In this document: in pieces, positions 1 through 28,872 of the stretch
How positions within the stretch are numbered: the stretch's first letter is position 1
How the letters are laid out: every line of letters starts with the position of its first letter
DNA from: Eledone cirrhosa
Taxonomy: Eukaryota
DNA: 64,000 nucleotides
Direction: 5' to 3'
Assembly (NCBI GenBank): GCA_964016885.1
Contig: OZ024745.1
Location: 58,032,001-58,096,000, forward strand
The notes under the pieces: generated by a model
The model's database searches: none
Seen by the model: the letters and a program-made list of their open reading frames with translations, nothing else
Told to the model about the DNA's origin: nothing
Position numbers and translations under genes: made by a program

Positions 1-2625
1 CGGTTGTCCGGTGAGGAATACGTAGAGGTGCCGTAGCCTTAATGCGTGTTTACGCATCATTAGCCACGGCATCCCCAGCCCTCCTTTCGAAGGGTGTTGA
101 CAGCAGATGGATCTCCTCACCATAGGAGCCCGCCCCTTCCAAAGGAATTGGAAGAGCGCGCGCTCCATCTTGGTGAGGGTTTCCCTTGGGCAGGGCACTA
201 CGGTCAGGCGGTAGTAGATGACGGACGCTATATAAGTGTTCGCCACCTCCGCCCGACCTTTCAGGGATAGTTTGCAACTGGCCCACTTCTGGGTCAGTGC
301 AAACACCCTGTTCGTAACCTCCGCCCAGTTTTTCTCCACCTGGAGGTCCGGTCCGAACCAGACCCCGAGCAACTTCACCGGGCCCTCCGTCCAGCGTCCG
401 ACGACGCCATCGGAGGGCATCGGTCTGCCCCTCCACGTGCCGAGTTGCAAACCGATCGACTTGTCCCGGTTCAGCTTAGCCCCTGTGAACTTTTCGTACT
501 CCTCCAGTAAGTTGCCGACCGCCTCGATTTCGGAGGCCGTCGACACCATTACTGTCACATCATCGGCGTAGGCCGACACCGCTTTCCGCAATCCCGGTTC
601 CAAAGGGATGCCCTGCAACAACTCCAACTTCCGCAGTAGTGGCTCGAGAGTCAACACATACAGAAGGGAGGAGAGAGGGCACCCTTGTCGGATGGACCGC
701 GCGATTTTGAACGGCTCCGAGAGGTAGCCGTTCACCTTGACCCTAGAGCAGATGCGGCTGCTGTGCATAGCAGTGATCCAGCCCCTGAAAACGGGTCCGA
801 AGCCTGCCGCCGCTAGCACCGCATTCAGGTAACCATGGTCGACCCTATCGAACGCCTTAGATTGATCCAAGTTGATCAGAGCCCCACCAAAGCCGGGTTC
901 GTTCCCAACCCTCTCTATGATGTATCGCATGAGGTGGAGGTTGTCATGGATGGACCTGGACGGGATAGCGCATGTCTGCGCATCTCCCACCAGGTTGCCC
1001 ACGACAAGCGCCAACCTCTTTGCTAGCACCTTGGCCAAAATCTGTAACTCTGTATTTAGCAGAGTTATGGGCCTGAAGTTACTTATTTCGTCCCCCTTGT
1101 TCTCGTCCTTCCTCACTAGCGTGACTACGCCCTTGGTCACAGTACAGGGAATTCTCCCGTTCTGTTGCCAGTTGCAGTAGACCGCCTCGAGGAGATCGGG
1201 GAACAAGTCCGGCATAGCTAGATATAATTCGTAAGGAAGACCATCGAGACCCGGGGATTTGCGTTTGCCGCATTGGCCCAGCACGTCCTCTATCTCAGCG
1301 GCCGAAATCGGCTCCTCGCAAGACTTCGCCTCCCTGTCCGAGAGGCGCGGCAGGCCGTCGAGGTATGGACCGAAGTCCACGTTTCCAACCGGCTCCCCGC
1401 CCCTCCCGAACAGTCGGGCAAAGTGCCTTTGAAAGGCCTCACACATCTGCTTAGGCTCAAGAATCGCCCGTCCATCCAGGTCTCGCAAAGACCGGATGGT
1501 GGATTTAGTTCCACTGTTGGCCTCTGTCACGCGGGCCCAGCTAACAGCTTTGGCCCCCTCGTTCCCTAGAGCACGTATTTTACTTCGGACAACGCAGCCT
1601 TCGTGCTTCGCGTCGAAAAACTGGCTCAAAGCCGTTCTCGACGCTAGCACTCTGGCCACGTCGCCGCTTCTAATTGCCTCTTCTACTCTATCTATTAGCT
1701 CCCTTTCCTTCCTATTCCTATCCGCAGCTAGAACCTTACTAAATTCAATCGAGACTACTCTAATCTCTCTCTTTAGAGATACCCACCACCTGCTGTTGAC
1801 GATCGCTCCAGTCAACCGTTCCTTAACTAACGTACTAATCCGATTCCTGTAGGCTCTACTTGCCGGCAAGGACAAGTTGAGCTTCCAGTAACCGGGGCCC
1901 TGTCTATGCGTTCTATCAAGGTTGACCATGCAGGTCACCAACTTGTGGTCTGAATAGCCAACCATGAGCATTTCTGGACAACTTAAAAAGTCCCTGTCCT
2001 TATTTCTAACTAAAAATCTGTCTAGGTACGATCTAGATGATCCGCTGCGATTTGACCAAGACCAGGTTGGCACCGTCGGAAAATCTAGTCGAAATCTATC
2101 GGCCAGGTCAAATCGGCCGAGTAACCCCTTGAGGCTGTTGCACCCCTCTCTATCGGGACATGCCCCTGCATAGTCCCAACGTGCATCCAGGATACCATTC
2201 CAATCCCCCACTAAAAGCAGGGAACGGGACGTCCCTAGAAAAGACTCCAGACGCTGGAAAAAGTCGGGCCGCTCTGTCCCAAAAGGGGCATATGCGGCTA
2301 TCAGCCTAAGGGCTCTACCTTCACCACTGCCAAGGTCCAGCACCACCAGTCGACCCCCTGGGTCCAAGTGAACTATCTGTGTTGCAAGGCCCATATGTTT
2401 TTGCAGCAGAACGACAACCCCACCCCCACCTCCGGGCTGACAGAGAGATGCGTGCATCTCAAAGTCGTCAAAGGTGGGGGCTAGCTGTCGCATGCTGCTG
2501 ATCCGGGCCTCGCAGATAACCATCACATTTATAGATTGTGACCTGAGGTCATTTAGAAGCATTGCTTGCTTCCAAGACGAGCCCAGGCCACGCGCATTTA
2601 GACACCCTACTCTTAGCACAGCCAT
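1..2625 (-). CDS. ORF2 (APE endonuclease + reverse transcriptase), partial, runs off the window start
   Basis: Same sequence as ORF2 of A2. ATG (MAVLRVGCLNARGL) at 2625; GDWN and SDHK endonuclease motifs; QGCPLS and YADD RT motifs. Confidence 0.92.
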   Translation of the reverse strand, partial: MAVLRVGCLNARGLGSSWKQAMLLNDLRSQSINVMVICEARISSMRQLAPTFDDFEMHASLCQPGGGGGVVVLLQKHMGLATQIVHLDPGGRLVVLDLGSGEGRALRLIAAYAPFGTERPDFFQRLESFLGTSRSLLLVGDWNGILDARWDYAGACPDREGCNSLKGLLGRFDLADRFRLDFPTVPTWSWSNRSGSSRSYLDRFLVRNKDRDFLSCPEMLMVGYSDHKLVTCMVNLDRTHRQGPGYWKLNLSLPASRAYRNRISTLVKERLTGAIVNSRWWVSLKREIRVVSIEFSKVLAADRNRKERELIDRVEEAIRSGDVARVLASRTALSQFFDAKHEGCVVRSKIRALGNEGAKAVSWARVTEANSGTKSTIRSLRDLDGRAILEPKQMCEAFQRHFARLFGRGGEPVGNVDFGPYLDGLPRLSDREAKSCEEPISAAEIEDVLGQCGKRKSPGLDGLPYELYLAMPDLFPDLLEAVYCNWQQNGRIPCTVTKGVVTLVRKDENKGDEISNFRPITLLNTELQILAKVLAKRLALVVGNLVGDAQTCAIPSRSIHDNLHLMRYIIERVGNEPGFGGALINLDQSKAFDRVDHGYLNAVLAAAGFGPVFRGWITAMHSSRICSRVKVNGYLSEPFKIARSIRQGCPLSSLLYVLTLEPLLRKLELLQGIPLEPGLRKAVSAYADDVTVMVSTASEIEAVGNLLEEYEKFTGAKLNRDKSIGLQLGTWRGRPMPSDGVVGRWTEGPVKLLGVWFGPDLQVEKNWAEVTNRVFALTQKWASCKLSLKGRAEVANTYIASVIYYRLTVVPCPRETLTKMERALFQFLWKGRAPMVRRSICCQHPSKGGLGMPWLMMRKHALRLRHLYVFLTGQP

Positions 2626-2649
2626 GTTGGTGGTAAAGAGAAAAGGCAC

Positions 2650-28539: not shown

Positions 28540-28766
28540 TTCTGTCAGACGATTGAAATTTTTTATGCCACAAAATTTTTAAAAACAGGTTTTTCACCCC
28601 TGGGAGGGGCAAAGATGAGCTGAGCCACCGCCTGACAGTTCAGACGGGGGGTCAAGCTACACAATAGTATCAAAATTAAAATTGAACTTACAAAATTTCC
28701 GCAATAAATTTGAACAAAACTTCTGCGCGAAGTGAATTACATCTACGCTGTAGAACAGACGACAGC

Positions 28767-28872
28767 TAGATAGATAGATAGATAGATAGATAGATAGATA
28801 GATAGATAGATAGATAGATAGATAGATAGATAGATAGATAGATAGATAGATAGATAGATAGATAGATAGATA
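28767..28872. repeat. (GATA)n microsatellite closing the Tx1 array
   Basis: Direct reading. Confidence 0.97.

Follow-up and report, generated by a model that had tools for sequence, protein, structure and literature searches.

Young, probably Tx1-clade LINEs of Eledone cirrhosa appear to target a fixed position in TATC repeats and build same-strand arrays

Among the APE clades of non-LTR retrotransposons, the accessible part of PMC6007223 names only Tx1 and R1 as having site-specific elements. The Tx1 targets that appear in print, as far as the accessible sections of PMC4494074 and PMC3812793 list them, are (TC)n, (TTC)n, (TTCC)n, (TTTC)n, U2 snRNA and transposons; the first two are the targets of Kibi and Koshi, respectively, which are Tx1-clade elements of teleost fish (Kojima and Fujiwara 2004, as cited in the same sections). 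Tandem insertions around a target duplication are described for SINEU-3 (PMC4494074, in part), and the mechanism by which APE elements target microsatellites is characterised as poorly understood (PMC3812793, in part). An annotation of Octopus vulgaris reports 13 recently active L1-Tx1 families, in a text whose accessible portion does not contain the word "target" (PMC13282606), and the accessible portion of PMC9115989 does not mention Tx1. We found no (TATC)n- or (GATA)n-specific element in the literature searched, and prior cataloguing, for example in Repbase or Dfam, is quite possible.

We analysed a 64,000-nt stretch of the E. cirrhosa genome (hereafter the window; G000:C5:58032001-58096000) in an assembly of 3.0 Gb with 1796 contigs, the largest of 443 Mb. 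The host genome is rich in (AT)n and (ATT)n. As had been predicted from the letters of the window, positions 1-28872 contain eight GATA-bounded units on the minus strand, one of them bounded by a single GATA at 9567-9570, and the units belong to three LINE families, A, B and C, with 78-83% DNA identity among them (Table 1). The array, predicted to be at least 29 kb long, is real and extends further: with flanking DNA included, it runs from window position -9705 to 28872 and comprises 10 units in 38.6 kb, ordered in the direction of the elements as C, chimeric Bdel, Bdel, Bdel, A, truncated B, Bdel, A, Bdel and full-length B. Seven 3' ends can be seen in the window, and each of them consists of AATAAA(A)GAAA, 2 nt and then TATC, without poly(A). 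The constant phase and the absence of a tail were described correctly in the original prediction, which had placed the junction 3 nt after GAAA; it lies 2 nt after, and the target duplications show the third nucleotide to be the T with which the duplicated target begins, or microhomology. The full-length 5' ends of A, B and C (for example at window 15381, 18063 and 28768) have target-like first letters, TCTCTCTA, TCTCTATCA and ATCTAG, which could serve to prime second-strand synthesis. A 200-N assembly gap is located at window 29872-30071, 1 kb past the end of the array. A further TATC array, on the opposite strand and 21 kb from the first, occupies window -53417 to -30697 (L034-L036) and consists of C, a B-type element, a fourth family (D), a C chimera and short 3' stubs.

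Table 1. Features of the window; negative positions lie upstream of its first letter.
Feature	Position	Strand	Remarks
Family A, full-length copy	1..4735, continuing to window -1075	-	2 nt from copy at 9571-15381
(GATA)14 spacer, target repeat	4736..4791	+	
Bdel, doubly deleted family B	4792..7413	-	B segments 1-2205, 3687-4111, 5817-5850; apparent crossover hybrid of Bdel at -3729 and Bdel at 15442
(GATA)4 spacer	7414..7429	+	
5'-truncated young family B copy	7430..9566	-	99.95% to closest dispersed B copies
Single GATA, short 5' target duplication of truncated B	9567..9570	+	
Family A, full-length	9571..15381	-	5811 bp, both ORFs open
ORF1 of family A	13296..15155	-	619 aa, one CCHC knuckle, Pfam E 0.0035, below cut-off
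ORF2 of family A	9834..13271	-	1145 aa; APE endonuclease, reverse transcriptase (YADD), C-terminal zf-RVT
(GATA)15 spacer	15382..15441	+	
Bdel copy	15442..18063	-	
GATA spacer	18064..18167	+	GTTA interruption common to two further spacers
Bdel copy	18168..20789	-	2 nt from copy at 15442
GATA spacer	20790..20893	+	same GTTA interruption as 18064..18167
Chimeric Bdel	20894..22928	-	same two Bdel deletions and one further deletion; 5' 755 bp only about 94% like other B copies
(GATA)4 spacer	22929..22944	+	
Family C, full-length, older	22945..28768	-	ORF2 frameshifted; 97.5% to nearest copy
(GATA)26, outer target tract	28769..28872	+	
Sister family E, 3' 2.26 kb	49207..51469	+	end AATAAAGAAA-TC-ATT
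Second family E piece, more decayed	51932..54153	+	

The ORF2 product has Pfam matches to PF03372, PF00078 and PF13966 only (APE, RT and zf-RVT), with no RNase H. Its best relative among solved structures is human L1 ORF2p (E 7e-49, residues 7-857), with R2 at E 6e-19. The elements share with the L1 group an N-terminal APE domain, an RT and a C-terminal zinc knuckle, together with 5' truncations and duplications of 10-21 bp, and A ORF2 contains motifs that align with what we take to be the catalytic residues of the L1 endonuclease. ORF1 proteins of the Tx1 clade carry a CCHC zinc knuckle. ORF1 of A has one CX2CX4HX4C motif, which Pfam scores as zf-CCHC at 17.8 bits, under the cut-off of 20.8, and no zf-CCHC was scored by Pfam in the ORF1 piece of C. 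The homologue-search matches included no named Tx1 sequence, nor did metagenome loci yield one. The elements belong to the L1 group and, based on the L1-group domains and the site specificity, with relatives in the tree that are unnamed, likely to the Tx1 clade. In A, both ORFs are in one frame, split by a single TAA and 24 nt (window 13272-13300); the stop lies in a splice-donor-like AG/GTAAGT, and family C as well as the sister families E and F have similar GTRRG motifs ahead of ORF2.

To characterise the junctions of dispersed copies, we searched the genome with the 3' ends of A, B and C, excluding TATC from the queries, and took the best 40 hits for each. We analysed 106 of these 120 hits, leaving out three window copies, five of six identical-junction copies on contig C12, one duplicate of L102 and five others; the resulting sample is one of top-scoring young hits, with the B set drawn entirely from contig C1 and some pairs being tandem duplicates. 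AATAAA(A)GAAA plus 2 nt was followed by TATC in 94 copies, by TATA in 10 and by another sequence in two, against backgrounds of 0.44% for TATC and 4.0% for TATA in 52 kb of element-poor DNA. The 94 of 106 exceed the >20% of flanks in one repeat type that has been used to define a target preference (PMC4494074, in part). At the other end, 80 of the 106 copies have TATCTATC no more than 30 nt from the 5' junction, among them 51 of the 73 that are 5'-truncated, compared with 0 of 104,460 background windows. Thirty copies have non-periodic target duplications of 10-21 bp; because these start exactly at TATC or TATA, the repeat is the target and not a tail. Bases +1 to +3 are TAT in all 30 duplications and base -1 is C in 26, giving a site consensus of TATC^TAT(C/A)TATNT, with TATC^TAT(C/A)TAT as its motif. 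Duplications span 13-20 bp in full-length copies and 7-21 bp in truncated ones. At one locus with a unique flank (L055), one contig enters the element, one ends at the junction base and one runs on for 19 letters; this fork at the predicted base is only a hint of an empty allele.

The (TATC)n targeting that had been predicted survived a preset check, since dispersed and truncated copies have TATC on both sides and duplications that begin at TATC. It is well supported that the repeat precedes the insertion as its target and that recognition is of a short motif, which occurs many times over in a long GATA tract. TATC is the main target; however, the motif also takes (TA)n and lone TATC units, such that the site is not strictly long (GATA)n. 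The reconstructed sites had at least four TATC units in 54 of 81 cases and none or one in 13 of 81, and several copies have no recognisable duplication; TATC specificity is therefore a preference.

Over the whole genome, an unbiased pattern retrieved 23,427 A/B-type 3' ends (control 38); NN-TATC/TATA comes next in 17,963 of them (control 2). In-phase (TATC)7+ tracts preceded by A, G or T number 10,176, with 3,169 lying directly after AGAAAN (control 10). For the first 21 such tracts on C1, an adjacent element was detected in 10 by script and in two more by eye. The first 30 A/B-type ends on C1 were followed by TATC/TATA (16), a 72-bp satellite (9), ATT (3), (TC)n (1) and TACC (1). An ORF2 of >1100 aa is present in 8 of 9 full-length copies of A, 4 of 7 of B and 1 of 16 of C. 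With a likeness that is often 99.5-100%, copies of A and B are recent and likely active. On contig C12, one truncated A insertion recurs six times at a spacing of ~60 kb inside a large tandem duplication (L092-L097, G000:C12:17.06-17.46 Mb). Four loci (L149, L154, L158 and L162) represent a subfamily of A, likely of recombinant origin, in which the 5' half differs (87% overall) and the 3' part is nearly identical.

Sister families are associated with other repeats. Full-length copies of family E are 5.9 kb long and lie in tandem between (ATT)n runs; their ORF2 is 67% identical to that of A. A pattern search of the genome retrieved 9,411 E ends (control 0), and 29 of the first 30 are followed by ATT; no candidates came from a DNA search that used the E 3' end as query. 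The 5' junctions of truncated E copies are mixed, with about 6 of 13 visible ones ATT-like by eye, and (ATT)n targeting by E is less well tested than (TATC)n targeting. In the window, a plus-strand stack between (ATT)n runs (47497-58263) contains the two E 3' pieces and other repeated units of about 0.4 and 0.9 kb, which also follow E ends at other loci. Family F, with an ORF2 84% identical to that of A, enters a 72-bp satellite at one position. Its full-length copies are at L299-L303 (G000:C1:4.22-4.26 Mb), L305-L311 and L317, with six in tandem at one locus, and no Rfam family was found near F copies. A hairpin loop was considered as the sole cause of the F target and does not explain it. 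At L253/L304, L314 and L315, related copies end in (TC)n, which is the target of Kibi; they are too few for a family. In a quick tree of 23 proteins, which includes four rows from broken copies read with X, F falls within the TATC families and E is their sister; across the sister families the endonucleases are 62-88% identical. We consider it possible, though doubtful, that a single young Tx1-like radiation switched targets repeatedly, between (TATC)n, (ATT)n, the 72-bp satellite and perhaps (TC)n, and that the target was set in part by the flank read into the RNA, being inherited from the landing site of the parent. If so, the flank of its parent would determine the target of an element that lies next to a third to a half of all long GATA tracts in the host genome.

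We propose, with good confidence, that these are young two-ORF LINEs, likely of the Tx1 clade, that enter TATC repeats at a fixed position, likely by an endonuclease nick at GATA^GATA, and that five or six insertions and unequal crossing-over generated the array. The elements join the repeat in one phase, are flanked by the 10-21 bp duplications, have neither an added repeat nor a poly(A) tail, cluster on the same strand and, in most full-length A copies, retain intact ORFs. In the proposed pathway, the APE domain would nick the GATA strand, opposite the element, at GATA^GATA. Transcription would continue for a few bases beyond AATAAA, into the flank of the element, and the RNA would thereby gain (UAUC)n, with which the freed GATA-3' end could pair to prime reverse transcription; such priming would account for the absence of poly(A). 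The duplication would stem from a second nick ~15-20 bp downstream, which leaves each side of the element with a target into which later copies could insert. Unequal pairing of adjacent Bdel copies, followed by crossover, would then have duplicated Bdel and the A+Bdel block. By analogy, the literature lends support to the nick and pairing steps: the isolated Tx1L endonuclease shows sequence specificity in vitro (PMC1950540, in part), and RNA-target pairing assists some LINEs and has been proposed for RTE elements (PMC6007223, in part).

We weighed two other accounts of the junctions. GATA runs could be self-encoded tails, added at random sites and later expanded, and four copies with long 3' TATC runs and no detectable duplication (L059, L081, L137 and L184) fit this idea. 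However, in the copies with a short unique upstream flank (L171, L114, L174, L178 and L110) the 3' flank is the duplicated target with zero added units, and TATC is also present 5' of truncated copies, which makes such tails extremely improbable. It is harder to dismiss, though still rather unlikely, that target choice is mainly a matter of RNA-DNA pairing by the flank that is read through, and that the endonuclease needs just alternating T-rich DNA. Pairing of this kind is what has been proposed for RTE elements, and F, although nested among the TATC families, ends at its one satellite site, where positions +3 to +7 (TCTAT) match the TATC site; the hairpin-loop sequence of F is almost that of B. 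Against this, the bases upstream of the nick, with which the RNA could not pair, are constrained too, as the C at -1 illustrates; the Tx1L endonuclease is specific by itself; and 14 of 14 F copies examined have a single common 5' junction, such that F may have spread as DNA.

Growth of the array involves a second set of alternatives. The locus had been predicted to be a self-extending landing pad, and re-insertion into spacers is real. The truncated B copy at 7430-9566 sits in a spacer and matches the closest dispersed B copies far better than its Bdel neighbours do (~97%), so it is likely the latest insertion of the array; moreover, 53 of the 106 dispersed copies have a same-strand family neighbour within 200-250 bp, compared with one that has an opposite-strand end. 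Near-identity alone is no proof of duplication, since dispersed B copies are sometimes 2-3 nt apart. Nonetheless, that all ten units are independent retrotranspositions into earlier spacers is improbable and largely refuted. Window 1-7432 and 10647-18082 are 99.85% identical, spacers included, such that the units are not all independent; A, spacer and Bdel recur as a block, and the A+B block repeated at the locus measures 10.6 kb. Bdel, with its two fixed deletions, accounts for 5 of 40 scored hits, every one at this locus (the first Bdel 3'-end query consisted mostly of RT sequence), and one GTTA interruption is common to three spacers. Furthermore, Bdel-4792 is a hybrid, its three left variants matching Bdel-15442 and its four right variants matching Bdel at -3729, the pattern predicted by unequal crossover between Bdel copies flanking one A. 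The same hybrid would arise if the 10.6-kb repeat were an assembly artefact, with two haplotypes, one carrying an extra truncated B, joined through Bdel and the targeting itself being real. The blocks differ by merely seven substitutions and one repeat-length change over 7436 bp, and the assembly gap lies close to the array end, as such a mis-join might have it. We regard it as a possible but less favoured origin, because Bdel has multiplied at least three times outside that block, with graded differences along the array that point to real crossovers at the locus. Hence, the landing-pad idea holds for some units; by our count the array comprises five or six insertions, and about four of its ten units result from DNA-level copying or mis-joining.

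Intact, near-identical copies with close sisters on different targets provide a ready set of endonucleases for swaps, and the sister set allows recognition by the protein to be separated from RNA-target pairing. High-copy elements flank many GATA microsatellite loci in this animal, a point of relevance to marker design and to the question of how tandem LINE arrays arise.

Several known systems bear comparison. Human L1 inserts at TTTT/AA sites and carries a poly(A) tail. The elements described here add no such tail, although L1 ORF2p is their best solved-structure relative. Dong, Waldo and Mino belong to the R4 and R1 clades. They too are microsatellite-specific non-LTR elements, for (TAA)n, (ACAY)n and (AC)n, respectively (PMC3812793, in part), and Dong uses the same repeat as family E, which reached (ATT)n independently, given the identity of its ORF2 to that of A. 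Tx1L of Xenopus, with its sequence-specific APE endonuclease, is the model for the targeting proposed here, although its target is a site in the Tx1D transposon and not a microsatellite (PMC1950540, in part). In their mode of targeting, the elements work like Kibi and Koshi: in each case an APE-type non-LTR element occupies a pyrimidine-rich microsatellite in one orientation (PMC4494074 and PMC3812793, in part). The repeats differ, being (TC)n and (TTC)n in teleosts and (TATC)n with spill-over to (TA)n in this invertebrate host, where A, B and C use TATC/TATA and (TC)n holds single related copies only. The crocodilian Tx1 families at (TTCC)n and (TTTC)n likewise have a tetranucleotide target ending in C (PMC4494074, in part). 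The (TATC)n target, even if catalogued before, is unlike the Tx1 targets we found in print; compared with the crocodilian families, the repeat unit is another one, the copies are young and intact, at least 17,963 ends are present, and sisters occupy other targets in the same genome.
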